Below, piece after piece: positions 147 through 46,095 of a stretch of DNA of 59,178 nt (within the stretch, counting starts at the first letter, position 1; each line of letters begins with the position of its first letter). Position numbers and translations under genes: made by a program. Source of the DNA: a virus (Duplodnaviria > Caudoviricetes). The notes beneath the pieces are model-generated. The model had not been told where the DNA came from. It did no database searches and saw nothing but the letters and a program-made list of their open reading frames with translations. The DNA lies in IMG/VR virus record IMGVR_UViG_3300033146_002247, positions 1-59,178 of that record; one strand, given 5' to 3'.

Positions 147-173
147 TAAAGATTCTCAAAAAAATGTCGATAT
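147..173 (+). promoter_or_regulatory. sigma28 (FliA/SigD)-type promoter upstream of flagellin
   Basis: TAAA(147-150)-15 nt-GTCGATAT(166-173), one mismatch to the TAAA-N15-GCCGATAT consensus, 53 nt before the flagellin ATG. Confidence 0.8.
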
Positions 174-226
174 TATATAAAGAGATAATAAATTGTTTAT
201 TATCAAAAATAAAATAGAGGTGTACA

Positions 227-1111
227 ATGAGTATGAGAATTAATCACAATGTGTTAGCTATGACTGCACAAAGACATATTAGTCGGGCACAAAATTCACT
301 AGATTCTGCAGTTGGCAGATTATCAAGTGGTTTAAGAATTAATAATGCAAGTGAGGATTCGGCTGGTCTCGCGATTTCTGAAAAATTGCGTGCGCAAATA
401 GGTGGAATGAATGAGGCTGAAAGAAATGCTAACTATAACATAAATATGTTATCTACTGCAGAGGGTTCGCTACAAGTTATTGATGAAAAACTTATTAGAA
501 TGCGAGCCTTAGCAATCCAATCTTCTAATGGTGCGCTGGAAAATAAAGATAGAGAATATATTAATGTTGAATTTCAACAATTAAAATCAGAGATTACTAG
601 AATTGCAAAGGTAACAAATTATAATAATGTTAAGTTATTAAACGGAGATCTTTCAACAAATGCAGTAGGTTCAACTTCAGGTAACATGACTAGTGTTAAT
701 GATAACTCAAGTAATATTAAATTTCATATCGGTGCTAATGTAACACAAGGTGAAGATTATTATTTTGTGAACGTTGCCTCTGCAACAGCAGCTTCATTGG
801 GTTTATCCTCATCATCTGTAACTAACACATCAAATTCACAAACTGCAATTGATTTATTAGATGCTGCGATTGAGTCCAAAGATACTACAAGAGCATTTAT
901 CGGTTCAATGGTTAATAGGTTACAAAGTAATATTTTAGAACTTCAAATATCTAAAGAAAATGCACAGACCAGTGAATCAGCTATAAGGGATGCTTCAATT
1001 GCTGAGGAAATGAGTAATTTCACACGTGCAAATATCCTATTTAATGCTGGAATTAGTATGTTAGGTCAGGCGAACTCCTTACCAAATGCTATCGCTAGTT
1101 TACTAGGGTAA
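227..1111 (+). CDS. fliC: flagellin (short, D0/D1 with minimal variable domain)
   Basis: N-terminal MRINHN...RLSSGLRINNASEDSAGLAISEKLRAQI and C-terminal SESAIRDASIAEEMSNFTRANIL...MLGQANSLP flagellin motifs. Confidence 0.97.
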   Translation: MSMRINHNVLAMTAQRHISRAQNSLDSAVGRLSSGLRINNASEDSAGLAISEKLRAQIGGMNEAERNANYNINMLSTAEGSLQVIDEKLIRMRALAIQSSNGALENKDREYINVEFQQLKSEITRIAKVTNYNNVKLLNGDLSTNAVGSTSGNMTSVNDNSSNIKFHIGANVTQGEDYYFVNVASATAASLGLSSSSVTNTSNSQTAIDLLDAAIESKDTTRAFIGSMVNRLQSNILELQISKENAQTSESAIRDASIAEEMSNFTRANILFNAGISMLGQANSLPNAIASLLG

Positions 1112-1159
1112 TTTTATAAAACAAATACAAAAAATATGAACAAAGATAAATTTTCATTT

Positions 1160-1198
1160 ATGCACAGATAGTCTTCATTTATCCGATTATCTGTGCAT
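1160..1198 (+). other. stem-loop between fliC and fliS
   Basis: ATGCACAGATA...TATCTGTGCAT 11-bp inverted repeat without a long U tract. Confidence 0.6.
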
Positions 1199-1222
1199 TA
1201 CTAATAAACAAAAGGTGATAAC

Positions 1223-1624
1223 ATGAAATTAACAAATCCCTACCAACAATATTTGAATAATAAAGCAAATACCAATAAAGCAGAGTTAATGATTATTGTT
1301 TATGATTTTGCAATAACTAATTTAAAAAAAGCACAGACTTATATAGGAACTAATGAATACCAAAAGAAAGGTAATGCAATTGATAATTCATTTAAAGCAG
1401 TGTCAGAACTAATATTCAGCTTAGATAAGAGTACAGATAATAACACAGTATTGAACATTAGTAATAATTTGGAAAAAATATATAATTTCATTTTACGTTC
1501 AATATCAAGTGCGAATATAAATAATGATAAAGAAATATTAAACTCACCAATTCATATATTAACTGATATTAAAGATACTTGGTTAAAAGTAATAGATATA
1601 AACCGAAATGAGAGTATTTTATGA
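1223..1624 (+). CDS. fliS: flagellin export chaperone FliS
   Basis: NPYQQY, ELMIIVYDFAI, ELIFSLD, NLEKIYNFI, IKDTW motifs; directly downstream of flagellin. Confidence 0.92.
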   Translation: MKLTNPYQQYLNNKANTNKAELMIIVYDFAITNLKKAQTYIGTNEYQKKGNAIDNSFKAVSELIFSLDKSTDNNTVLNISNNLEKIYNFILRSISSANINNDKEILNSPIHILTDIKDTWLKVIDINRNESIL

Positions 1625-1851
1625 AAATAGCAAATAATTATATACCTACATATATACAAAATTATAAGTTTTCTAAAATAAATAAAATAAAAGATGAACC
1701 TAATAAGTCAGATGTTCTGGAAATTAGCGATTCTGCAATAAATAAAAATAAAAAATTTGGAAAAATATTAAATCAAATAGACGAAAAATTTTATCAGTCA
1801 GAGGATATTATCAATAAAGTATTAGATGAAATTTTAAAAACTATTATATAA
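1621..1851 (+). CDS. FlgM-like anti-sigma28 factor (putative)
   Basis: 76 aa; SDVLEISDSA and KILNQIDEKFY...IINKVLDEIL resemble the two conserved FlgM blocks; overlaps the fliS stop (ATGA). Confidence 0.6.
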   Translation: MKIANNYIPTYIQNYKFSKINKIKDEPNKSDVLEISDSAINKNKKFGKILNQIDEKFYQSEDIINKVLDEILKTII

Positions 1852-1862
1852 AGAGGTATAAA

Positions 1863-2342
1863 ATGGATGTGTTAGGATTATTAAAAATAGATGGATTACA
1901 TAAACAATTATATGTACAATCAGCAACAGATCAACTAATAGATGAAACAGATTTAAATTTGGTTGAATTAACAGGTTTTCAATTATTACTAAAAAATAAA
2001 ATAAATCATGCAATATTTTCTGAAATACCAAGAAAATCTACTGTAAGTGGAACTACTTTAACATTAAATAAACCCTTGGTTGGTTTTCAGCCATATAATT
2101 TAATTGGAAATTATGTATTATTAATTAAAACTGATTATTCTACTGAAATTGTTAAAATAATGGCTACAAATGACACATTTGATGTATTAACTTTAGAAAA
2201 TGCTCCTACCGGTGATGCAAATCCATTAGCAATTTTTACAGAATTAAATAGAGTCCCTGTTGAACAATTAAGTAATTTAAGTGTAAAACCAATTGTTTAT
2301 TCAACTAATAAATTTGGAATAAGAAATTATTACGAATTATAA
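1863..2342 (+). CDS. hypothetical protein, possibly virion-associated
   Basis: 159 aa ORF with GAGGT RBS, followed by a terminator. Confidence 0.5.
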   Translation: MDVLGLLKIDGLHKQLYVQSATDQLIDETDLNLVELTGFQLLLKNKINHAIFSEIPRKSTVSGTTLTLNKPLVGFQPYNLIGNYVLLIKTDYSTEIVKIMATNDTFDVLTLENAPTGDANPLAIFTELNRVPVEQLSNLSVKPIVYSTNKFGIRNYYEL

Positions 2343-2350
2343 AATAATCT

Positions 2351-2383
2351 AAGCTACTAGTATTATAAAAGTACTAGTAGCTT
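2351..2383 (+). terminator. intrinsic terminator-like hairpin
   Basis: AAGCTACTAGTA/TACTAGTAGCTT 12-bp stem followed by an AT-rich tail. Confidence 0.7.
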
Positions 2384-2402: not shown

Positions 2403-2729
2403 TTGCAACATATATTAAATTTTAGTTATAAAAAGAAAAATATAAATGTTAAATATTTTTTATTCAACACAGACCTATCATTTCATATAGGTAAACCTTA
2501 TAACTTAACATCGAATGCTTTTGTATATGATAAAAATAAAGATGACAAAAATAGGTCTAATTTGAAACATATAATAAAAATCATCATATCTGCTTATGAT
2601 GAAATTAAACGAACCAATGGTTTTAAATTAGGTGAAATTATAAAAAAATATAAAATTGATGAAATGGCAGATATTAATGAATTAACCGATGAAATTTCCA
2701 ATTTATTAAAGGCTAAATATGATTTATGA
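2403..2729 (+). CDS. hypothetical protein
   Basis: 108 aa ORF, AGGAG RBS, TTG start, overlaps next gene. Confidence 0.5.
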   Translation: MQHILNFSYKKKNINVKYFLFNTDLSFHIGKPYNLTSNAFVYDKNKDDKNRSNLKHIIKIIISAYDEIKRTNGFKLGEIIKKYKIDEMADINELTDEISNLLKAKYDL

Positions 2730-3957
2730 AATTAATTATATACCAACAAAAGCTAATTCATATTTTATTGAACCTGACCGAATTGTTGATCTTAAGTTTA
2801 CTACTTCTATAAACACCCCTTTCATAGATTTTTCACTGACTTTAATTGATAATACAGCATCTGAAATATTTGATTTTATTAAAGGTGATAAAGTTAATAT
2901 TAAGATAAAAGGATTTAAAACTAATGGCGAACAAACCAATTATAATACTTTAGTTGAGTTGGTAGAACTAGATTTATTTGTTTATAAAATTAGTAGATAT
3001 TCCTCTGCTCTAAATGAACAAGATAAATTTATTTTACATTTAATAAGTGAACCGATATTTAACGCATATACTAAATATAATAGCAAAACGTATGAAAATA
3101 AATCTGCGACTGATATAATAAAAGATCAATTAAATATGATTAATTTAGAAACTAATGATTTTGATGAACCTACTACTAAATTTGAAATATTAACATTTCC
3201 ATTATGGACTACTTTTCATAACTTAACCTACATAACAGATCGAATGACTGATGGAAAATCGGGTTATTTGTTTTGGCAAGATATTGAAACTTTAAATTTA
3301 AACATTAAATCTATTCATAATTTATTTAAAGGTAATTTTGAAGATTATGTAAATAGTAAAACTTATCAAAATGGTGAATTGATTGAAGATGGTATAGGTT
3401 TAGTTGAAAATCAAGGTGGATTTAATATAGCAACTGAATTATCTATAACAAAAGATACTGATATTATAAAAATGTTGAATAATGGAATAGGTAAAACTAA
3501 TGTTATTAATTTTAATCTAAATGAGAACGAAATCTATTCAACTGATGAAACTATTACTGATAATTTATCAAGTACAGAGCATTTAGGCGATTATTCGATA
3601 TATACTAAAGATATAATCGGAACTAATGAAATTAATATATTTAATTACAATCTGAATGAATCAAGTGACGATTTATTAAAAATAAAATATTCACGACAAT
3701 TATTAAATGGCATAGAAGCACGTGCTGAATTATCTGGTGATATATTTAGAAAAGTGGGAATGAAAATTAAAGTTAATTTTAGACAAAAATTACCTAGATT
3801 AACTGATGAAAAAAGTGACTATTTAGAAAAATACACAGGGTATTATATTATTTCAGATATTCAACATTATATGACAATTTCAGAATACAATCAAGTTGTT
3901 ATTTTGAAAAGTGATAGTTTTTATAATGATGACCGAGATAATTTTATTAAATGGTAA
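2719..3957 (+). CDS. baseplate hub / tail protein (T4 gp27-like)
   Basis: 412 aa beta-rich protein; GYLFWQD and C-terminal KVGMKIKV...YTGYYIISDIQH pattern typical of contractile-tail hub proteins. Confidence 0.6.
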   Translation: MIYEINYIPTKANSYFIEPDRIVDLKFTTSINTPFIDFSLTLIDNTASEIFDFIKGDKVNIKIKGFKTNGEQTNYNTLVELVELDLFVYKISRYSSALNEQDKFILHLISEPIFNAYTKYNSKTYENKSATDIIKDQLNMINLETNDFDEPTTKFEILTFPLWTTFHNLTYITDRMTDGKSGYLFWQDIETLNLNIKSIHNLFKGNFEDYVNSKTYQNGELIEDGIGLVENQGGFNIATELSITKDTDIIKMLNNGIGKTNVINFNLNENEIYSTDETITDNLSSTEHLGDYSIYTKDIIGTNEINIFNYNLNESSDDLLKIKYSRQLLNGIEARAELSGDIFRKVGMKIKVNFRQKLPRLTDEKSDYLEKYTGYYIISDIQHYMTISEYNQVVILKSDSFYNDDRDNFIKW

Positions 3958-4913: not shown

Positions 4914-4987
4914 GCTCCGGTAGCCAAGTAGTCTAAGGCATCATTCTGCAAAATTGATATTCGCGGGTGCAAATCCCGCCCGGAGCT
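4914..4987 (+). tRNA. tRNA-Cys(GCA)
   Basis: GCTCCGG/CCGGAGC acceptor stem, anticodon loop CTGCAAA, T arm GCGGG-TGCAAAT-CCCGC, U discriminator; no encoded CCA. Confidence 0.88.
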
Positions 4988-5291: not shown

Positions 5292-5543
5292 ATGTTAAAA
5301 GATATTAAACCCTTATTAAGGAAAGGAATTGTTAAATTTAATTATAGTTATACAAATAAACCTGGATTGAGATATGCAAAGGGAACATTAGATACTAAAT
5401 TAATCCCTAAAGAATTTTTAAATAAATTAAATGGTTCGTTAGATTCTATTAGTAGGGAAGAAGGTGATTATACATTATATTTTGACCTTGATAGTAATGG
5501 TTGGAGAAAATTCTTGAATAGGAACCTTATTGAAGTTGAATAA
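5292..5543 (+). CDS. SH3/WYL-like beta-barrel protein (DUF2693-like)
   Basis: G.VKF.Y...G..R.A.GTL...YFDLD..GWR.F pattern. Confidence 0.7.
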   Translation: MLKDIKPLLRKGIVKFNYSYTNKPGLRYAKGTLDTKLIPKEFLNKLNGSLDSISREEGDYTLYFDLDSNGWRKFLNRNLIEVE

Positions 5544-5590: not shown

Positions 5591-5830
5591 ATGAAAATAA
5601 CTAAAAGTCAATTAAAAGAAATAGTAAATGAAGTATTGAACGAAGGTGGAATGAGTGACCAACATCTAAAATTTGTGGATAAATTAGTAGATGCTGATAA
5701 CGTTAAAGAGGTAAAATTACTTATTCAGAAAGATGTTTATAATTTTGTACAAACAAAAATAACTGATAAATTATTAAAGAAAATTGCTAATTCAGATGAC
5801 TATGAAGAAATTGCTGAATTGATAAATTAA
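5591..5830 (+). CDS. putative internal head protein, leader class A
   Basis: N-terminus MKITKSQLKEIVNEVLNE shared with 7 other ORFs; upstream ATAAATAA. Confidence 0.6.
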   Translation: MKITKSQLKEIVNEVLNEGGMSDQHLKFVDKLVDADNVKEVKLLIQKDVYNFVQTKITDKLLKKIANSDDYEEIAELIN

Positions 5831-5838
5831 AATGATTT

Positions 5839-5909
5839 TGCGGGATATATTAATGGTAGATTGTCGGGCTCATAACCCGTCGGTGGGTGTTCAATTCACC
5901 CTCCCGCTT
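5839..5909 (+). tRNA. tRNA-Met(CAT), initiator type
   Basis: anticodon arm CGGG-CTCATAA-CCCG with three G:C pairs, unpaired 1:72 (T/T), T arm GGGTG-TTCAATT-CACCC; no encoded CCA. Confidence 0.85.
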
Positions 5910-6461: not shown

Positions 6462-7816
6462 ATAATATTCTTTTATAATTTTCTATAAAAAATCAATTTT
6501 TGATAAAGAAAATATAAAATAAAATGATGAAAATTTAATAAATAATTAAAAACGAGACTGATGAAAAAATCTACTAAAAATATTGTAAGGACTGTAAAAT
6601 TTTCTACTAAATTCACAAATAAAGATAAGATAGACTTATACACTAAAATATTTGTAGACTTTAAATTAGATTTACAAAGTTATATAGAAGATATTATAAG
6701 TGGAGTTTTACCTTTTAATTTTGGTGGATTACTTACAAGTAAATTGATTCCAAATAAAATAATTAAACACAGTCAATATAAACAAATTATCTACAAAACA
6801 GCTATAGAAATAATTAAATCTAACCTAGTTAAAACAAAGAACAAAACATTTAAAAGATATAGTAAAGTCTATTATAAAGCACATAAAAGAGGACGATTAA
6901 CTAAATTTCTTTCTAAAAAATATAGTGAACTAGATATAAATTTTCTACAAAGATTGGACAAAATAAATGTAGATAATGTAGGCATAAACTTAGACTCTAG
7001 ATTATTTGACATAGAAAAATCTAACGATGGATTGTTTAGTTATTTTATTAAAATAAAGTCACCTTACATAGTTAAAAATAAAGCAATTACTATAAAAATT
7101 CCTTTAAAATCTTACAAATATGCTAAGAAATTTATAAGTGATTTTTCTTTAAATAGTACCATACAGTTAAAAGAAAGTACAATTGGATTGGTCTTTAGTA
7201 AAGAATTACCTGACAAAAAAGTAATTAAAAATGTGGTTGGATTGGATGTCGGTTACAAGAAATTACTTGCTGATAACAAAGGTAATTTCTACGGACAAAG
7301 TTTACTTGAACTATACAATAAAATTAGTAACAAGGTACAAGGAAGTAAAGCTTTTAAACGATTACTAATACATAGAAATAATGAAATAAACAGATTTTGT
7401 AATAAATTTTTACTAGATAATGTAGAATTAAGTTTATTGGTTTTAGAGAAATTAAAGTCAGTAAAATCTAAAAGTAAAGGTAAAATTTACAAGAAAGTAA
7501 TGAACAAAATGCAACGATGGAGTTATCCATTAGTAATGACTAAGTTAGAGCGATTAAGTGAAACTAAAGGTTTTAGTTTACATTTTGTCAACCCTGCTTA
7601 TACAAGTCAACAATGTAGTAAATGTAGTATAATTTTAAAGTCGAACCGGAACGGAGAGACTTATAAATGTAATTGTGGTAATAACTTAGACGCAGATACT
7701 AATGCAGCTATAAACATTACTCGTAAAGGTACAGTTGAGTTAAACTTGATTTAGTTAAAACTTAACGATATAATTCCTTTAGCTACGAAAAGTCATTTTA
7801 TCATTTTTGATGGTAA
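6462..7816 (+). mobile_element. non-autonomous IS200/IS605-family (TnpB-only) insertion; boundaries approximate
   Basis: tnpB flanked by short hairpin-containing ends (TTTTATA..TATAAAA left, TATCA-TTTT-TGATG right), inserted in the esterase gene; no tnpA. Confidence 0.75.
6561..7754 (+). CDS. tnpB: TnpB RNA-guided endonuclease
   Basis: RuvC GLDVG, LVLEKL, DADTNAAINI; PAYTSQQCSKC...CNCG zinc ribbon. Confidence 0.92.
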   Translation: MKKSTKNIVRTVKFSTKFTNKDKIDLYTKIFVDFKLDLQSYIEDIISGVLPFNFGGLLTSKLIPNKIIKHSQYKQIIYKTAIEIIKSNLVKTKNKTFKRYSKVYYKAHKRGRLTKFLSKKYSELDINFLQRLDKINVDNVGINLDSRLFDIEKSNDGLFSYFIKIKSPYIVKNKAITIKIPLKSYKYAKKFISDFSLNSTIQLKESTIGLVFSKELPDKKVIKNVVGLDVGYKKLLADNKGNFYGQSLLELYNKISNKVQGSKAFKRLLIHRNNEINRFCNKFLLDNVELSLLVLEKLKSVKSKSKGKIYKKVMNKMQRWSYPLVMTKLERLSETKGFSLHFVNPAYTSQQCSKCSIILKSNRNGETYKCNCGNNLDADTNAAINITRKGTVELNLI

Positions 7817-29379: not shown

Positions 29380-29940
29380 ATGTTAAAACGACAATTAGAA
29401 AAATTTATACAAGATTTTGGAGACCATTATCTATTTGAAAACTCTCTGGGTAGAATATGGCAACATTCTAAAAATGGGTTTATTCTAATGTCATCTTTTA
29501 GAGGAAATGATTTTAAAAAAAATATGAGTAATCATAAAGAATTAAAATCTATATTAAAAAGTAAAAATTTAGGTTTTTTTGAAGTTAATGGAGTATATAA
29601 ATATGATAATGGTGATGTTGAAAATGAATTATCTGTATTTATTCCTTATAGAAAAGACAAATATACATTTAATGAATTCGTTGAAATAGGAAAGGCACTA
29701 AGAAAAAAATTTAACCAAGAAAGTATTTTAATTTCAGATAATAACGAAAACATATATTTACAATATTCAAATAAAAAAGAAACTATAGGTAAAAAAATTA
29801 CAGTAGATAAAGTAGGATTTGCATATAGTCAACTAAGAACTGGTAGTCATAAAGACAGAACCTTTATAATTGAATCTGTCAGAAAACCATATAATCATAT
29901 ACAAGCTTATAAATTTAAAGCTGAAAATCTATTATTTTAA
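29380..29940 (+). CDS. SAM lyase-like protein with class B leader
   Basis: MLKRQLE...LFE leader; ILMSSFRGN..KNMSNHKEL...G.Y...ENELSV...FNQESILI resembles T3 SAMase motifs. Confidence 0.6.
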   Translation: MLKRQLEKFIQDFGDHYLFENSLGRIWQHSKNGFILMSSFRGNDFKKNMSNHKELKSILKSKNLGFFEVNGVYKYDNGDVENELSVFIPYRKDKYTFNEFVEIGKALRKKFNQESILISDNNENIYLQYSNKKETIGKKITVDKVGFAYSQLRTGSHKDRTFIIESVRKPYNHIQAYKFKAENLLF

Positions 29941-32989: not shown

Positions 32990-34528
32990 ATGTTAAAACG
33001 ACATTTACACGAAAAAATCAGGCTCGCTAGTATTTCTAAAAAAATTACCAATTTAGAATACGAAAATATATGTAAATTCTTAAATATATTAGTTACTAAC
33101 AAAAATATAAAAAATTGGGGATTTGATATATTAATTAATAAAAACTCTATTAAAAATCAGATTTTAATAGAGTTGAATTTTTTAGAGTTGTTTAATAATG
33201 ATAATAGACGAGAATATATATTAAACATTTTATCTACAACATATATAAAATCTACTCAAACTACTCGATTATTAGGTCCTCAATCCTCACCTAAGTCAGG
33301 GTCTTTGGGTTTATCTAAAATAAAATTCAGTAATATAAATACCCCTATATTTGCTCGAGTATACGGAGCAAAAAGAGGTGGACGACATATAAGTGACACT
33401 GATGAAAAAGAGGCACTGACTATAAAGATGTACAGAGCGAATTTAGGCATTGATTCTTTTTCAAATAGTTCAATTTCTAAATATAAAGAAAAATTAGTCA
33501 AAACCGATACTACTTATGAGTTAGGTGAATCCACTGAGAAAAAAATAAATGAATTTATTTTTTTATCTAGTCAAAATAAAACAACTATGCGATACTGGAA
33601 TGAAAGTTTATCTATAGCAAATAAATTACAAGAAACTTATAAATCACAGGAGTTTTTTTTAATTCGGAATGATTTATATAATAATATTAGAAAACTTTTT
33701 ATGGATATACAAAAATCTACAAAAAATAAAAAAATTAGTATATTAGTAGATAAATGGAACCCCGGTGATGCATATTTAATAAATAAACAACAAGTACATA
33801 ATATTGAATTGAATATAAATAAATTAATTCTTGAAAATAAAACCAAAGTAATTTCAATTGATTTACTTAATAATTTATTTAGTTCTAGTTATGGTAATAC
33901 AAATAAATTAACCTCTATTTCATTAAAGGGTGAGCTTGCTCAAGGTGGTAAAGCAAAGGGCATTTTGAAAAAATATAAAACCAAAGATATGGATTTTAAT
34001 ATTACAGAAACTGAATATAATTATAATTACACTCAATATGTTAATAAAATTAAACAGATGGACTCTCAGTTTATCCAGTTATTAAGACATGTATATTTAC
34101 CAATAAATATAAATTTTTTTACCCAAATAAAAAAATCGAATAATTATATAAATAAAATTAGAACTAAATTTACTAATATGAAAATACTAATGTTTATTGT
34201 AAGAGCAGCCGAAAAAGAGAATGTTAATATATATAAAATATTAATGAGTGTATTTAGGTTTGGATTGTCTATGACTAAAATATCCTCACATTTTTTTAAA
34301 TTAAGTGGAGATTCAAAATATGGACAAGCAAAGGTATTAAATTTTAATAATCATAATTCTATAACTTATGATAATATTAACACATTAAAAATTGATAATT
34401 CAAGTACATTAGCTTCTCATATACGAATTAGCGCAGATTTAAATTTTAATACTGAAATAAAACCCATTAAAATGCAAATTAGAAGTAATGGAAATATACA
34501 AAGTACAATAGAAATTCAATCATTTTAA
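32990..34528 (+). CDS. putative PD-(D/E)xK-like nuclease with class B leader
   Basis: MLKRHLHE; TDEKE...DKWNPGDAYLI...SISLK, motif shared with 30569-32023. Confidence 0.5.
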   Translation: MLKRHLHEKIRLASISKKITNLEYENICKFLNILVTNKNIKNWGFDILINKNSIKNQILIELNFLELFNNDNRREYILNILSTTYIKSTQTTRLLGPQSSPKSGSLGLSKIKFSNINTPIFARVYGAKRGGRHISDTDEKEALTIKMYRANLGIDSFSNSSISKYKEKLVKTDTTYELGESTEKKINEFIFLSSQNKTTMRYWNESLSIANKLQETYKSQEFFLIRNDLYNNIRKLFMDIQKSTKNKKISILVDKWNPGDAYLINKQQVHNIELNINKLILENKTKVISIDLLNNLFSSSYGNTNKLTSISLKGELAQGGKAKGILKKYKTKDMDFNITETEYNYNYTQYVNKIKQMDSQFIQLLRHVYLPININFFTQIKKSNNYINKIRTKFTNMKILMFIVRAAEKENVNIYKILMSVFRFGLSMTKISSHFFKLSGDSKYGQAKVLNFNNHNSITYDNINTLKIDNSSTLASHIRISADLNFNTEIKPIKMQIRSNGNIQSTIEIQSF

Positions 34529-36675: not shown

Positions 36676-37509
36676 ATGAAATATATTTATTTAGACCAAG
36701 TTAATTCACATGTTTTCAGTGCTGGCGAAGTCCATGTTAACATTAGTAATTACTTACCATTAGAAGATGACCATTATACAATTATGGCAACGATTAAAAA
36801 TTCAGATGACTTAATGAAATTGTTGTTATTAGAAGATGCTATACGAAATGAACTTGGTGATTATGAATTACATCTAAATATACCTTATGTTCCTTATGCT
36901 AGGCAGGATAGAGTATGTGCTAAGGGAGATGCATTTTCATTATCAGTATTTGCAAGAATGGTAAATTCTTGTAATTTTACATCGGTTTCTGTACTTGATC
37001 CACATAGTAAGCAAGTAGAAATGTATATTGATAATATTAAAGTATATAATAATTTTGCTTATGTAAAACATATGCTAAAAAAATATAAAATTAAGGAATT
37101 TAATTTGGTTGCACCAGATAAAGGAGCTACTAATAAAATTAATAAATTGGCACATTTTTTAAAAGAAAATAGTGATTTTAGTGTTAATAATATTATTCAA
37201 TTTGACAAAAAAAGAGATATGAAAACAGGAAAAATAATAAGTTATGATATTCAAAAACAGGATAAATTAAAACCAGATGGATTTATTAATATTATCGTTG
37301 ACGATATATGTGATGGCGGTAGAACATTCATAGAAGCAGGAAAAATATTAAATGATTTAGGCAGCGATAAAAATATATTATTCGTAACGCATGGAATCTT
37401 TAGTAAAGGCACAGGAGAACTAAATAATTATTTTTATTCAATTGCAACGTCCAATTCATTAGGTAATAATAGAAATATTGAATATGTAGATTTTTTATTT
37501 TATCAATGA
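36676..37509 (+). CDS. prs: PRPP synthetase-like protein (probable NARP1 Adps)
   Basis: FSAGEVHV, PYVPYARQDR, LDPHS, VAPDKGA, IVDDICDGGRTF, VTHGIFS. Confidence 0.9.
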   Translation: MKYIYLDQVNSHVFSAGEVHVNISNYLPLEDDHYTIMATIKNSDDLMKLLLLEDAIRNELGDYELHLNIPYVPYARQDRVCAKGDAFSLSVFARMVNSCNFTSVSVLDPHSKQVEMYIDNIKVYNNFAYVKHMLKKYKIKEFNLVAPDKGATNKINKLAHFLKENSDFSVNNIIQFDKKRDMKTGKIISYDIQKQDKLKPDGFINIIVDDICDGGRTFIEAGKILNDLGSDKNILFVTHGIFSKGTGELNNYFYSIATSNSLGNNRNIEYVDFLFYQ

Positions 37510-37590
37510 TGAACTAAATTTATACAAAAATATGAAAATTGGCAGAAATTAAAAAGGACAAAAATACGATATAATTAAAATGGAGTAAAA

Positions 37591-39336
37591 ATGGCTAGAA
37601 CAAAAGTATTACCTGAACATAATGTAATGGAGTTTACAGATTTTTATAAGACAGGACATAAAAATCAATATCCAAAAGGGACTAATATTGTATATAGTAA
37701 CCTAACACCAAGAAGTAATAAGTATGCTATTTCAGATAAGATGGTTGTTTTTAATATTCAACATTTTATTATGAAACAATTAATGCATAATTGGAAAATC
37801 GGATTTTTTGACAGACCAATTGAAGATGTATTATATGATTATAAAAGACGTATGGACACCTCTTTGGGCAAAGACTCTATTCCAGTTGACCATATTGAAG
37901 AACTTCATAATCTTGGATATTTACCTTTAGAGATTAAAGCGTTAAAAGAGGGCACAAGAGTTCCAATGAGAGTACCTATTTTAACCATATCCAACACAAT
38001 TGATAAATTTTTCTGGTTAACAAATTATGTAGAAACTTTAATGAGTGCTGAATTATGGCAACCGATGGTATCTGCTTCAACTGCTTATGAATATAGAAAA
38101 GAATTTGATAGACATGCAGAATTAACTGGTTATACAGAATGGGATGTTACTCAATTTCAAGGGCATGATTTTTCTTTTAGAGGTATGCCTGGTGTAGAAG
38201 CTGCAATGTCATCTGGTGCAGGTCATTTATTATCATTTACTGGAACTGATACAATACCATCATTAGGTTGGCTAGAACATTATTATGGAGCTGATGCAGA
38301 AAAAGAATTGATTGGTACTTCTGTACCAGCCACAGAACATAGCGTTTCTTGCGCATCAGGTAAAGAAAATGAATTAGAGTTTTTCAAAAAACTAATAACT
38401 GAAATATATCCAAATGGAATTGTAAGTATTGTAAGTGATACCTGGGACTATTGGAAAGTAATTACTGAATTTTTACCGGCTTTAAAAGATGATATTATGA
38501 ATAGAAGTGGAGGTTTTCCGGTAGATAGAGTAGTAATAAGACCTGACAGTGGAAATCCAGTAGATATTATATGTGGAACTTTACATGATATTGTAGATTT
38601 TACAGATGATTGTGATACATACGAAAAATTTTCACGTTGGGCGCAAGAGACTATAGTTGATGACATCAGAGAAAATACCCCACACGGCGAACTTGGTGAT
38701 AGTAAAGCATATCAAATTTTTAAATGGAATGATAAATACTATAAAGTTTCAGTTTCAATTGATTGGAATAGACACGACAAACAATATTATTACGAAGATG
38801 GTTCAGAAGTAACAAATATAGAAGAAGTTGAATTAACACCAGAACAAAAAGGTACTTACGAAATGATGTGGGAAAATTTCGGTGGGACTATAAATGAGAA
38901 AGGATATAAAGTACTAGATAGTCATATCGGACTTATATATGGTGACTCTATCACTTTTGATAGACAAAAAGAGATTTTAAAGAGATTAGAAAATAAAGGA
39001 TTCTGTGCATCAAACCTTGTACTTGGCATAGGAAGTTATACATACCAATATGTGACACGAGATTCATACGGTACTGCGGTTAAGGCAACATATACCGAGG
39101 TTAATGAAAAAGGTTTTAATATCTTCAAAGACCCAAAAACTGATGATGGAATGAAAAAATCTGCAAAAGGTTTATTAGGTGTTTCTAAATTACCAGATGG
39201 CGAATTGGCTTTAATGGACGAATTAGAAAAAGGAAAATCTGCTATAAATGAACAACTCGAATTAGTATGGAAAGACGGAGTATTTCATAGAACACAAACA
39301 TTACAAGAAATTAGAGATATTTTAAAAACACAATAA
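37591..39336 (+). CDS. nadV: nicotinamide phosphoribosyltransferase-like protein (probable NARP1 Namat)
   Basis: TDFYKTGH..QYP, HDFSFRG, VPATEHSV, SIVSDTWD, IRPDSGNP, IYGDSIT, GIGSYTYQ, KKSAKG. Confidence 0.93.
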   Translation: MARTKVLPEHNVMEFTDFYKTGHKNQYPKGTNIVYSNLTPRSNKYAISDKMVVFNIQHFIMKQLMHNWKIGFFDRPIEDVLYDYKRRMDTSLGKDSIPVDHIEELHNLGYLPLEIKALKEGTRVPMRVPILTISNTIDKFFWLTNYVETLMSAELWQPMVSASTAYEYRKEFDRHAELTGYTEWDVTQFQGHDFSFRGMPGVEAAMSSGAGHLLSFTGTDTIPSLGWLEHYYGADAEKELIGTSVPATEHSVSCASGKENELEFFKKLITEIYPNGIVSIVSDTWDYWKVITEFLPALKDDIMNRSGGFPVDRVVIRPDSGNPVDIICGTLHDIVDFTDDCDTYEKFSRWAQETIVDDIRENTPHGELGDSKAYQIFKWNDKYYKVSVSIDWNRHDKQYYYEDGSEVTNIEEVELTPEQKGTYEMMWENFGGTINEKGYKVLDSHIGLIYGDSITFDRQKEILKRLENKGFCASNLVLGIGSYTYQYVTRDSYGTAVKATYTEVNEKGFNIFKDPKTDDGMKKSAKGLLGVSKLPDGELALMDELEKGKSAINEQLELVWKDGVFHRTQTLQEIRDILKTQ

Positions 39337-39653: not shown

Positions 39654-40553
39654 ATGAGTGGACAAGATAAAATTTATCAAATGATAACTGATATAATTGT
39701 TGAAAAAATTGAAAAGTCTATTGAAAATAAAGAACCATTTAGTTGGACTAAAACTTGGGAAGGTGGACATCTTACTCCAATGAATTTAACTACTGGAAAA
39801 CCTTATACAGGTGTTAATGTTTTATTATTATCAGATAGATTCAGTAACCCATATTTCCTTACTTATAAACAATTAAAATCAATTGGTGGAAGTTTAAAAA
39901 AAGAAAAAGGAATTAAATCAACACCTATTGTATTTTGGAATACATTCGAAAAAAATAAATTCAAGAAAAATAAAACTAAAGAACAAAAGAAAAAAGATAC
40001 TGTTTGGTTTCTTAAATATTTTAATGTTTATAATGTTGAACAATGTGAAGGTATTGAACACAAAAGATTAGATGAATTAAAAACAGAAATTAAAAATACC
40101 AATAAATTTGAAAATATTGTTGAGTTTGATACAATGGTGAAAAATTACGGAATTGATATAACTCATAATGAACAAAGAGCATATTATTCACCTGGGCAAG
40201 ATTTTATCAATATGCCAATTAAAGAAAGTTTCAAATCAACAGGAAATTATTACAATACATTGGCACACGAATTAACTCATTCTACTGGACACGAGGCAAG
40301 ATTAAACAGAAAAGAAATATCTGAAATGACAATAGCTGCGAAAAATGATGGATATGCGATTGAAGAATGTGTTGCTGAGATTGGAGCTAGTTTTATGAGT
40401 ACAATATTCAATTTAAACATTTCACTTGACAATAATGTTGAATATTTAAAGGGTTGGATATATGCATTAAAAAATGATACAAAACTTTTATCTAAAGCAT
40501 CGAGCAGAGCGCAAAATGCTACTGATTATTTATTAAAATTTAAAGAGGCTTAG
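39654..40553 (+). CDS. ardC: antirestriction protein ArdC (ssDNA-binding + zincin-like domains)
   Basis: YQMITD.I, P.N..TGKPY.GVN, AYYSP..D.I.MP, HEL.HSTGH..RL.R, YA.EE.VAEIG, YL.GW. Confidence 0.92.
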   Translation: MSGQDKIYQMITDIIVEKIEKSIENKEPFSWTKTWEGGHLTPMNLTTGKPYTGVNVLLLSDRFSNPYFLTYKQLKSIGGSLKKEKGIKSTPIVFWNTFEKNKFKKNKTKEQKKKDTVWFLKYFNVYNVEQCEGIEHKRLDELKTEIKNTNKFENIVEFDTMVKNYGIDITHNEQRAYYSPGQDFINMPIKESFKSTGNYYNTLAHELTHSTGHEARLNRKEISEMTIAAKNDGYAIEECVAEIGASFMSTIFNLNISLDNNVEYLKGWIYALKNDTKLLSKASSRAQNATDYLLKFKEA

Positions 40554-44740: not shown

Positions 44741-46095
44741 TTACAAACAAATAAAAAGAAATAAAACTAATGACTTTAACTAGAACAGAAAGACATATAA
44801 TTAAACAAAGAGATACTAATTTAGACGATTTAATGTTTAAAAGTAAGAATTTGTATAACTTTGTTAACTATATTTTGAGACAAGTTTTCTATGAAAAGTT
44901 AGAGTTAATACCTGAATATAGTGACATAGTTACTGATTTTAAATCAGTTAAATCAGGTAAAATTTACAAGACAATAAATCAATTTTCTTTGATTACTAGA
45001 CTAACTAAATTAAACCAGATTGACTTTAGAGAACTACCTAGTAATACGTCTCAACAAATAATCTTTACTTTATTTAAAAACTGGAAGTCATTTTATAAAG
45101 GTGTTTTGGCTTATAGTAAAAATCCAAAGAAGTTTAAATCTTTACCTAAAGTACCTGGGTACAAAGACAAACCCAATGGTAGAAATTTATTGGTTTTTAC
45201 TACCCAACAAGTAAAACTAAAAGATGGATTTGTACATTTTCCTAAAAAAGTAAATATATCTCCTGTTAAAACCCGAGTGAACAATCTAAAACAAGTAAGA
45301 CTTTTACCTCGATTTGGTTACTACGTTTTAGAAATAGTATACAACAAAGAAGTAAAATTAAAAAAATTAAACACTAAAAAGTATTTATCTCTTGACTTAG
45401 GTGTGAATAACTTACTTGTAACTTCAGACGGACAAATCGTCAACGGCAAGATAGTTAAGAGTATAAATGCTTATTACAATAAAACTAAAGCAAGGTTACA
45501 ATCATTACTTCCTCACAAACAATTTACTAGCAAAAAACTAGAACGAATTACTTTTAGACGAACAAATAAAATCAGTGATTATATGCACAAAACAAGTAAA
45601 TATATAGTTGATTATTGTGTCGAAAATAAAGTAGGTAATTTAGTAATTGGTTACAATAAAGGTTGGAAACAAAATGTACAAATAGGTAAAAAGAATAACC
45701 AAAATTTTGTTTCAATTCCTTATTTAAAGCTTGTACAAATGATACAATATAAAAGTGAAGAAGTAGGACTATATGTTACTTTAAATGAAGAAAGTTATAC
45801 AAGTAAGGTAGATGCTTTAGCCAAAGAACCATTAAAGTTTAGTGAAAATTATTTAGGTAAAAGAGTTAAGCGAGGACTATTTCAAAGTAGTACAGGACGA
45901 CTTTTAAATGCAGACCTAAATGGAGCACTAAATGGAGCACTAAACATACTAAGAAAAGTAATCGGTGATGGTTTTATAGACCTAGTCGATAAGAGCTGTG
46001 TCGGTCAGCCAAGGAAAGTTAGTTTTACATAAAAGTAAACTAATGGAACTAAATACTTTTATAAAAATTTATACATAATTATATAAAAGTGATCC
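44741..46095 (+). mobile_element. TnpB-only IS200/IS605/IS607-family insertion; boundaries approximate
   Basis: tnpB between two halves of a SLOG gene; right-end hairpin ACTTTTATA...TATAAAAGT. Confidence 0.72.
44770..46032 (+). CDS. tnpB: TnpB RNA-guided endonuclease (rearranged RuvC-II type, no Zn-finger Cys)
   Basis: SKNLYN, SLDLGVNN, VIGYNKGWKQ, EESYTSK, GKRVKRGLF, NADLNGA. Confidence 0.92.
   Translation: MTLTRTERHIIKQRDTNLDDLMFKSKNLYNFVNYILRQVFYEKLELIPEYSDIVTDFKSVKSGKIYKTINQFSLITRLTKLNQIDFRELPSNTSQQIIFTLFKNWKSFYKGVLAYSKNPKKFKSLPKVPGYKDKPNGRNLLVFTTQQVKLKDGFVHFPKKVNISPVKTRVNNLKQVRLLPRFGYYVLEIVYNKEVKLKKLNTKKYLSLDLGVNNLLVTSDGQIVNGKIVKSINAYYNKTKARLQSLLPHKQFTSKKLERITFRRTNKISDYMHKTSKYIVDYCVENKVGNLVIGYNKGWKQNVQIGKKNNQNFVSIPYLKLVQMIQYKSEEVGLYVTLNEESYTSKVDALAKEPLKFSENYLGKRVKRGLFQSSTGRLLNADLNGALNGALNILRKVIGDGFIDLVDKSCVGQPRKVSFT

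Follow-up and report, generated by a model that had tools for sequence, protein, structure and literature searches.

Phage control of the bacterial flagellum has so far been documented for temperate Enterobacter phages, which pair a flagellin with an RNA-guided repressor. According to the main texts of the two sources, the temperate Enterobacter phage FRphi carries the flagellin gene fliCP together with a nuclease-dead TnpB (TldR), the guide of which blocks the fliC promoter of the host (Wiegand et al., bioRxiv 10.1101/2023.11.30.569447; Walker et al. 2026, PMC13418256). The main text of the preprint reports a promoter of the FliA type for fliCP and places TldR, by definition, within three open reading frames (ORFs) of the phage fliC (10.1101/2023.11.30.569447). 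Here, we describe a flagellar module at the 5' edge of the IMG/VR record IMGVR_UViG_3300033146_002247, a contig classed as linear, whose 59178 bases were analysed as a whole (hereafter the window). The module consists of a sigma28 (FliA)-type promoter, a flagellin gene (fliC), the gene of the flagellin export chaperone FliS, and ORF3, which encodes a small protein resembling the anti-sigma28 factor FlgM.

The words fliS and flgM are absent from the main texts of both sources (10.1101/2023.11.30.569447; PMC13418256). A literature search returned nothing on a phage-encoded FlgM or FliS, and the distinct works on phage-encoded flagellin among those listed all concern TldR; neither statement extends to the supplements of the TldR papers. 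The best explanation of the module, held with moderate confidence, is that a large T4-like phage carries a captured late-flagellar operon of its host, in which flgM has shrunk, and alters or sustains the host flagellum.

The flagellar module and its bacterial relatives

The intact 294-aa flagellin and the FliS announced by the original prediction were both recovered. The flagellin belongs to its family by both helical domains, which are covered from end to end: PF00669 with E 1.8e-37 and 128.9 bits (cut-off 26.6; profile positions 1-136 of 139), and PF00700 with E 6.1e-18 and 65.4 bits (cut-off 23; profile positions 1-86 of 86). Of 112 columns without variation among 13 close bacterial flagellins, it keeps 109; bacterial rows left out one at a time deviate at 0-10 columns. 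Its best score with an NCBIfam equivalog, 207.5 bits, falls short of the cut-off (332). FliS passes the cut-offs of PF02561 and of the equivalog TIGR00208 (55.3 bits against 53.75), which places it in the FliS family, and it is 48% identical to the FliS beside the flagellin of the bacterial locus L048.

Promoters recognised by sigma28 follow the consensus TAAAGTTT-N11-GCCGATAA. A sigma28 promoter was expected ahead of the module, and a site of this type lies at 147-174. With 0.08 occurrences expected, the window has two of the strict pattern TAAAG-N15-YCGATA, a count reached in 1 of 100 shuffles. The second strict site, TAAAGAAA-N11-ACCGATAC at 33484-33509 (+), lies within a 512-aa ORF (32990-34528), about 1 kb before the next gene. 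The looser pattern TAAA-N16-18-CGATA matched eight times in the window (3.53 expected), and TAAA-N14-16-CGATA, the spacing of which is off and misses the promoter, matched four times (3.89 expected). TAAAG-N16-YCGATA is absent from the window, yet it was found in 39 of the 121 loci examined. The sigma28 pattern precedes fliC in many bacterial loci. In the locus L050, the promoter TAAAGTCC-N11-TCCGATAA (motif at 5678-5703, fliC at 5754) aligns with that of the module at the same distance from the start codon, and the regions upstream of the two fliC genes align as well. The spacer of the L048 motif is 1 nt longer. By motif and by spacing 5' of a class-3 gene, the site at the head of the module thus qualifies as a putative sigma28-dependent promoter.

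Relatives of the flagellin are numerous (7870 among 8000 scored candidates). The nearest one other than itself, P0002, is 78% identical and is followed by a series at 65-71%; the few named relatives are labelled Cloacimonadota, Delongbacteria or Zixibacteria. A quick maximum likelihood tree was built with IQ-TREE from 118 rows, i.e., 114 of the 120 listed proteins (270-330 aa) and four locus translations. The flagellin of the module came out as the sister of P0002 (SH-aLRT 99), and the two fall inside a clade of 58 rows (support 99) that holds Cloacimonadota- and Delongbacteria-labelled sequences. The branch of the module's flagellin measures 0.40, compared with 0.078 for P0002 and a median of 0.1. 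A flagellin phylogeny had been suggested as a means of identifying the host, and on this basis the host would belong to an uncultured lineage labelled Cloacimonadota/Delongbacteria.

The closest bacterial loci show the same arrangement of genes. L048 (genome G001, contig C79) contains a flagellin 68% identical to that of the module, FliS, and then a 163-aa FlgM that passes PF04316 (25.8 bits, cut-off 25), with a divergent yqgF-like gene 5' of the flagellin. In the metagenome contig L050, housekeeping-looking genes flank a flagellin (P0003) with 71% identity, FliS, and a 157-aa FlgM-like protein. FliS is directly followed by a FlgM-like protein in ten further bacterial loci as well. Across the 12 loci, these proteins measure 142-197 aa, and 11 of the 12 match PF04316. 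In most of those loci, including L004, fliD stands between fliC and fliS; L048 and L050 share the order without fliD that is seen in the phage. The bacterial gene after fliS was observed to encode a tandem FlgM with two GYYD...EV...A repeats (L048 1897-2388; L050 7211-7684; ten more loci). G001 has, in addition, a separate 109-aa FlgM-like ORF (L004 658-987, minus strand), located 5' of another flagellin.

The host lineage possesses FliA (261.4 bits in G001, cut-off 189.6). Flagellin matches number four in G001 and six in the related G002, some of them in tandem, and none were found in the other 14 of the 16 genomes of the phylum. Hence, the filaments of the flagellated G001/G002 lineage are probably built from several flagellins.

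Since the order fliC-fliS-flgM is native to the closest bacterial loci and the promoter of L050 is homologous, the most likely origin of the module is the capture of an entire late-flagellar operon of the host, promoter included. The original prediction had credited the phage with a design different from that with TldR. As a construction of the phage, this design was given up: L048 and L050 have the same order natively, and the L050 promoter has the same distance and spacing.

Table 1. Features of the window discussed in the text (positions refer to the record)
Feature	Position	Strand	Description
Sigma28 (FliA)-type promoter	147..174	+	TAAAGATT-N11-GTCGATAT, 55 nt 5' of the fliC ATG
Flagellin (fliC), full length	227..1111	+	294 aa; PF00669 and PF00700
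Stem-loop between fliC and fliS	1160..1198	+	14 bp; fold of 1112-1222 = -20.1 kcal/mol, z -4.07, 0/200 shuffles as stable
Flagellin export chaperone FliS	1223..1624	+	133 aa; PF02561 E 6.2e-23, 81.7 bits (cut-off 26.7)
ORF3, minimal FlgM-like protein, candidate anti-sigma28	1621..1851	+	76 aa; ATG overlaps the FliS stop (ATGA, 4 nt)
ORF4	1863..2342	+	159 aa; no family match; 11 nt after ORF3, before the 2351-2383 hairpin
Stem-loop followed by U-rich run	2351..2383	+	14 bp; fold of 2340-2402 = -18.4 kcal/mol, z -3.46, 1/200 shuffles as stable
Phage tail protein	2719..3957	+	412 aa; phrog_350 'tail protein' E 7.3e-28; nearest recognisable phage gene 3' of the module
TnpB/Cas12f-like ORF, first	6561-7754	+	397 aa; phrog_506/12300; PF07282
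TnpB/Cas12f-like ORF, second	44770-46032	+	420 aa; phrog_506/12300; PF07282, PF01385

Probable residence of the module in the phage genome

The completeness of the record is estimated at 28% (CheckV), so the full genome would measure roughly 200 kb. The GC content of 25.5% is uniform over the whole contig, and the + strand holds all 41 ORFs of at least 150 aa. The portal protein is of the Portal_T4/gp20 type (PF07230, E 1.1e-62, 212.6 bits). It matches 2549 phage records, the best at 26-29% identity, which belong to T4-like cyanophages and a jumbo Ochrobactrum phage. A T4-type RNA ligase is present (RNA_lig_T4_1, 73.2 bits), and a match to the T4 neck protein, at 21.5 bits, stays under the cut-off of 25. 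The 28% fragment has no genes for a major capsid protein, sheath or baseplate. The other recognisable genes encode a ribonucleotide reductase, two helicases, a DNA ligase and 2 tRNAs. One helicase shares 39.5% identity with its counterpart from a 462-kb uncultured phage and about 31% with those of jumbo phages of Tenacibaculum, Chryseobacterium and Sphingomonas. No match to a tyrosine integrase or resolvase family was found anywhere in the 59-kb window. The T4-type portal and RNA ligase place the phage among the T4-like (gp20-portal) myoviruses. Considering the portal, the replication genes and the lack of an integrase or resolvase, the label of a large T4-like phage, probably virulent, seems fair. 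The description as T4-like in the original prediction therefore stands in a broad sense, with the portal, the RNA ligase and the single coding strand behind it.

The module was also expected to run into phage genes, which is how the contig reads: ORF4 follows ORF3 at close distance, and the tail gene lies 870 bp from ORF3 (Table 1). Alternatively, the first 1.9-2.4 kb may be bacterial DNA, through either a chimeric assembly or the inclusion of the chromosomal flank of an integrated prophage. The position of the module suits this alternative. It is known from a single metagenomic contig, linear and incomplete, and it sits at the very edge, as the contig ends 226 nt 5' of fliC. This alternative, nonetheless, fits poorly with a window lacking any integrase or resolvase and with a tail gene so near. 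Moreover, the spacing with ORF4 on the same strand is tight, and ORF4 itself is unmatched in the 5 genomes of the host lineage. The portal has no match in these genomes either, and such empty results carry little weight.

Composition can be read in two ways. Among the 67 ORFs with 100 aa or more (mean GC content 25.6%), fliC has the highest value, 34.2%, as would suit a bacterial gene. The synonymous codon log-likelihood ratios of fliC (+0.038), fliS (+0.108) and ORF3 (+0.056), on the other hand, fall inside the range of 63 phage ORFs (mean +0.076, standard deviation 0.033, minimum -0.024). Together with ORF4, which also lies in the phage range and is the most phage-like of the set (+0.156), they fall outside the range of 14 ORFs of the host lineage (mean -0.082, maximum -0.037), and 7 bacterial orthologues score -0.056 to -0.128. 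The GC content at third codon positions (GC3) is 0.20 in fliC, 0.18 in fliS and 0.12 in ORF3, compared with 0.22-0.30 in six orthologues from L048 and L050. These values would also be compatible with a host as AT-rich as the phage, outside the sampled lineage.

The content of the module, a complete and native-looking bacterial operon, agrees with bacterial DNA as well. By contrast, a phage-borne copy would be expected to show what is seen here, a long flagellin branch and a flgM of 76 aa instead of 142-197 aa.

The search for related phages weighs against residence in the phage genome. The module was to be looked for in related phage contigs, and scans of viral contigs with the flagellin, tail protein, FliS, ORF4 and portal yielded no related phage that could bear out this arrangement. 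Flagellin matches occur in 12 of 50,697 GenBank phage records, all below 60% identity and several of them unannotated fragments of 1.4-7 kb; the jumbo phages nearest by helicase are not among the 12. In a very large protein search, the tail protein had no match at E <= 1e-5 apart from itself; among phages, it is 22-23% identical to its counterparts in Rhizobium and Vibrio phages, which have genomes of about 155 kb. ORF4 has no family in Pfam, phrog and NCBIfam scans and no match in the phages collection (tblastn) or the viral contigs. Its nearest clusters in the ESM Atlas are viral hypothetical proteins (0.86), which is a lead only.

Taken together, the phage-like codon usage and GC3, the tight packing with ORF4, the lack of an integrase, the long flagellin branch and the truncated flgM suggest that the module probably resides in the phage genome, which is the least secure part of the account, and an origin of the first 1.9-2.4 kb in bacterial DNA is considered unlikely.

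ORF3 and its resemblance to FlgM

ORF3 occupies the position of flgM in L048 and L050, right after fliS and behind a sigma28-type promoter. To identify the protein, the original prediction proposed a search with FlgM models, the outcome of which depends on the model. General models fail: ORF3 has no Pfam family at E <= 10 and no NCBIfam match at E <= 0.01, so that neither PF04316 nor TIGR03824 recognises it, and PF04316 gave 0 matches at E <= 10 against the six-frame translation of the window. A profile of the lineage's own FlgM, made from the 12 syntenic proteins (11 of them matching PF04316), has a single match in the six-frame window, at 1681-1845 (+; E 7.5e-4, 15.2 bits). This match aligns residues 21-75 of ORF3 with the C-terminal repeat. 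It is weak and limited to the C-terminus, and it points to homology with the FlgM of the lineage.

Profile comparison with hhalign aligned residues 45-75 with the same repeat (score 28.0, E 2.3e-4). None of 150 shuffles of ORF3 reached this score (mean 10.3, standard deviation 2.1, maximum 20.7), nor did any of the 29 other natural small ORFs on the + strand of the window (maximum 15.7). In the ESM Atlas, a FlgM cluster stands at rank 5 for ORF3 (0.88, 170 shared features), again as a lead only. CsrA, FlaG and FliT were considered as identities of ORF3 as well and were dropped, as no Pfam family appears at E <= 10.

The co-fold with FliA was another check put forward at the outset. The partner was a five-row alignment of FliA from the host lineage, and three controls were run. 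The predicted complex of ORF3 and FliA has an ipSAE of 0.68, 0.66 and 0.68, compared with 0.00 for the best control; at least 80% of contacts recur between the runs, and the pLDDT of the partner is at least 63. As a calibration of the mark set for such predictions, 58 of 80 solved complexes and 2 of 110 mismatched pairs reach it. Confident contacts join residues 45-76 of ORF3 to residues 191-248 of FliA, which contain the conserved helix-turn-helix of region 4, and to FliA residues 150-154, 173-174 and 38.

Several points weigh against identifying ORF3 as FlgM. Apart from the failure of the general models, the hhalign probability is just 44%, and ORF3 shows no BLASTP similarity to the FlgM of L048 (E 1.4). 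It found only itself among 5.8 billion proteins (word-indexed) and 1.84 billion representatives (phmmer). The FliA used in the co-fold is a stand-in, taken from a genome with flagellins only 65-70% identical to that of the phage. Finally, since complexes of FlgM and sigma28, including that of Aquifex, have already been solved, the co-fold is to be read as predicted FlgM-likeness rather than as binding, and it may reflect learned complexes. It is the lineage-specific evidence, i.e., the profile, hhalign and the co-fold, that sustains the prediction of a FlgM-like third ORF.

A different view accepts that the module is phage-borne and takes ORF3 as a decaying remnant of flgM or as an unrelated small protein, or the whole operon as a recent, unselected passenger. 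Decay would fit the GC content of 18.6% and a length under half that of the bacterial counterparts, and an unrelated protein would fit an orphan without a Pfam or NCBIfam FlgM match, whose resemblance to FlgM is limited to the last 30-55 residues. No similarity of any kind was detected for the N-terminal 44 residues. The frame, however, is open, its overlap with the FliS stop is operon-like, and what has been kept is exactly the C-terminal repeat. This repeat is the part placed on FliA region 4 in the co-fold, where the controls failed, and its similarity lies far outside that of shuffled sequences and natural ORFs. Furthermore, fliC and fliS are under purifying selection, which argues against a decaying passenger operon. 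A remnant, an unrelated protein or a passenger operon is thus quite unlikely, and ORF3 is, with good though not full confidence, a FlgM reduced to its last sigma-binding repeat.

A replacement of the FRphi kind, with a TnpB-like protein of the phage as RNA-guided repressor (TldR) of the host fliC, is very improbable. Although the window does contain TnpB-like ORFs, two in number, their distances from fliC (5.4 kb and 43 kb) exceed the limit of three ORFs, the third RuvC Asp motif, which is the one examined in HMMER alignments, is retained in both, and their flanks match flagellin targets no better than controls do. The targets were the fliC region of the phage itself and 11 bacterial stretches; the longest exact match to these 12 measured 13-15 nt, compared with 13-17 nt in 60 control windows. 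Flank matching found no flagellin-directed guide, and no guide-RNA model was run. TldR-based remodelling was rejected on the grounds of distance, retained motif and control-level matches, and the proposal of a design without TldR holds to this extent. The first TnpB-like ORF has a Zn-ribbon (CxxC...CxC); the second appears to be without the cysteines.

Other genes of the contig were noted in passing. The small ORFs just 3' of the tail gene are interspersed with tRNA-Cys(GCA) (4914-4987, +) and tRNA-Met(CAT) (5839-5909, +), and include one for a WYL_2 domain protein (5292-5543, +). At 36676-39336 (+), a ribose-phosphate pyrophosphokinase gene adjoins a nicotinamide phosphoribosyltransferase gene (phrog_619 E 3.5e-79; phrog_448 E 3.9e-191), apparently as a pair for NAD salvage. 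Two candidate counter-defence genes encode an S-adenosylmethionine lyase family protein (PF23780, E 5.9e-13; 29380-29940, +) and an 'anti-restriction' phrog_7245 protein (E 2.6e-69; 39654-40553, +).

Proposed working and comparison with known systems

Stem-loops follow fliC and ORF4, and the likely transcription units are therefore fliC, plus read-through into fliS-ORF3-ORF4. The first stem-loop is possibly an attenuator or an mRNA stabiliser, and the second is probably the end of the transcription unit. As ORF4 starts shortly after ORF3 and lies 5' of the second hairpin, it is probably co-transcribed with fliS and ORF3. Against this layout, a consensus terminator scan flags neither hairpin; its sole site lies inside ORF4 (2077-2093), with 0.6 sites expected.

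In an infected cell with active FliA/sigma28, the promoter suggests that the host's RNA polymerase, in its sigma28 form, would transcribe the phage operon. The phage FliS would, judging from its family, bind the phage flagellin and deliver it to the flagellar export gate of the host, and the flagellin may then join a host filament made of several paralogues. ORF3 is predicted in silico to bind region 4 of FliA like FlgM. It would damp the transcription of the host class-3 genes by sigma28. Because the FlgM-like gene is located in a sigma28 operon, ORF3 would damp its own operon too, a negative feedback as with the native flgM. An anti-sigma factor damping the host class-3 genes had been predicted. 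Of this claim, the FlgM-likeness and the predicted binding were retained, and a target limited to the host was not.

The benefit to the phage could take two forms. Flagellin supply and motility might be kept up after host shut-off, following the logic of auxiliary metabolic genes. Alternatively, the surface of the filament might be changed, with the receptor masked against flagellum-binding phages. The two readings fit equally. In either case, the module suggests that the phage changes or sustains the host flagellum during infection. A more far-reaching version is proposed only tentatively and should be regarded as doubtful: a virulent jumbo phage would supply its own flagellin and FliS from a sigma28 promoter, so that the infected cell builds or retains a filament specified by the phage, while the 76-aa ORF3 clamps FliA region 4 and throttles the host class-3 genes, which would make ORF3 the first phage-encoded FlgM and an AsiA-like factor directed against an alternative sigma.

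If the module is phage-borne, the range of flagellar remodelling takes in phages that are large and probably lytic, as well as an uncultured phylum. The same problem would then be solvable with protein parts taken whole from the host, a chaperone and an anti-sigma factor. With about 30 predicted contact residues, ORF3 would count as a very small sigma28 binder of natural origin, usable both as a tool and for testing the minimum that FlgM requires. Cyanophages are known to maintain photosynthesis during infection. Likewise, motility would become a candidate for the host functions that phages keep up or modify in infected cells.

Compared with FRphi, as far as the main texts of the two sources describe it, the module shares a phage-borne flagellin expressed from a FliA/sigma28-type promoter and a second phage gene proposed to lower the expression of host flagellin. 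Drive by sigma28, which the original prediction took as distinctive, is accordingly a feature of the published fliCP too. The differences are considerable. FRphi is a temperate siphovirus, whereas the phage studied here is T4-like, large and probably virulent. It carries FliS and a FlgM-like protein, and a TldR was rejected. Repression would hit the sigma factor, hence all class-3 genes and the phage operon itself, and not one promoter.

Flagellins of other phages have likewise been found in large phage or prophage records, i.e., Bacillus phage EZ-2018a and four viral contigs of 118-195 kb (L117-L120) detected by flagellin alignment. Their identity to the flagellin studied here is 33-48%, and in L117-L120 no FliS or FlgM was found within a flank of up to 10 kb with the queries used. 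The neighbours of the flagellin in L118 look phage-like by eye.

The bacterial fliC-fliS-flgM operons of L048 and L050 resemble the module in gene order, in the 294-aa flagellin, in sequence (flagellin 68-71%, FliS 48% identity) and, in L050, in the spacing of the promoter. They differ in that their FlgM is a tandem-repeat protein of 157 aa (L050) or 163 aa (L048), in contrast to one recognisable repeat in the 76-aa version of the phage, and in that the genes of the module have phage-like codon usage and are followed by phage genes. With FlgM proper (PF04316), ORF3 shares the flgM position, a C-terminal helix that matches the host-lineage profile and a predicted place on sigma region 4; it differs by failing the Pfam and NCBIfam models and by having about half the usual length.

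The small AsiA protein of phage T4 acts as an anti-sigma70 factor by binding to sigma region 4. Similarly, ORF3 is small, belongs to a T4-like phage and has region 4 of a host sigma factor as its predicted binding site. The two proteins have no sequence relationship. The target of ORF3 would be sigma28 and not the housekeeping sigma, and its origin would be a captured regulator of the host.

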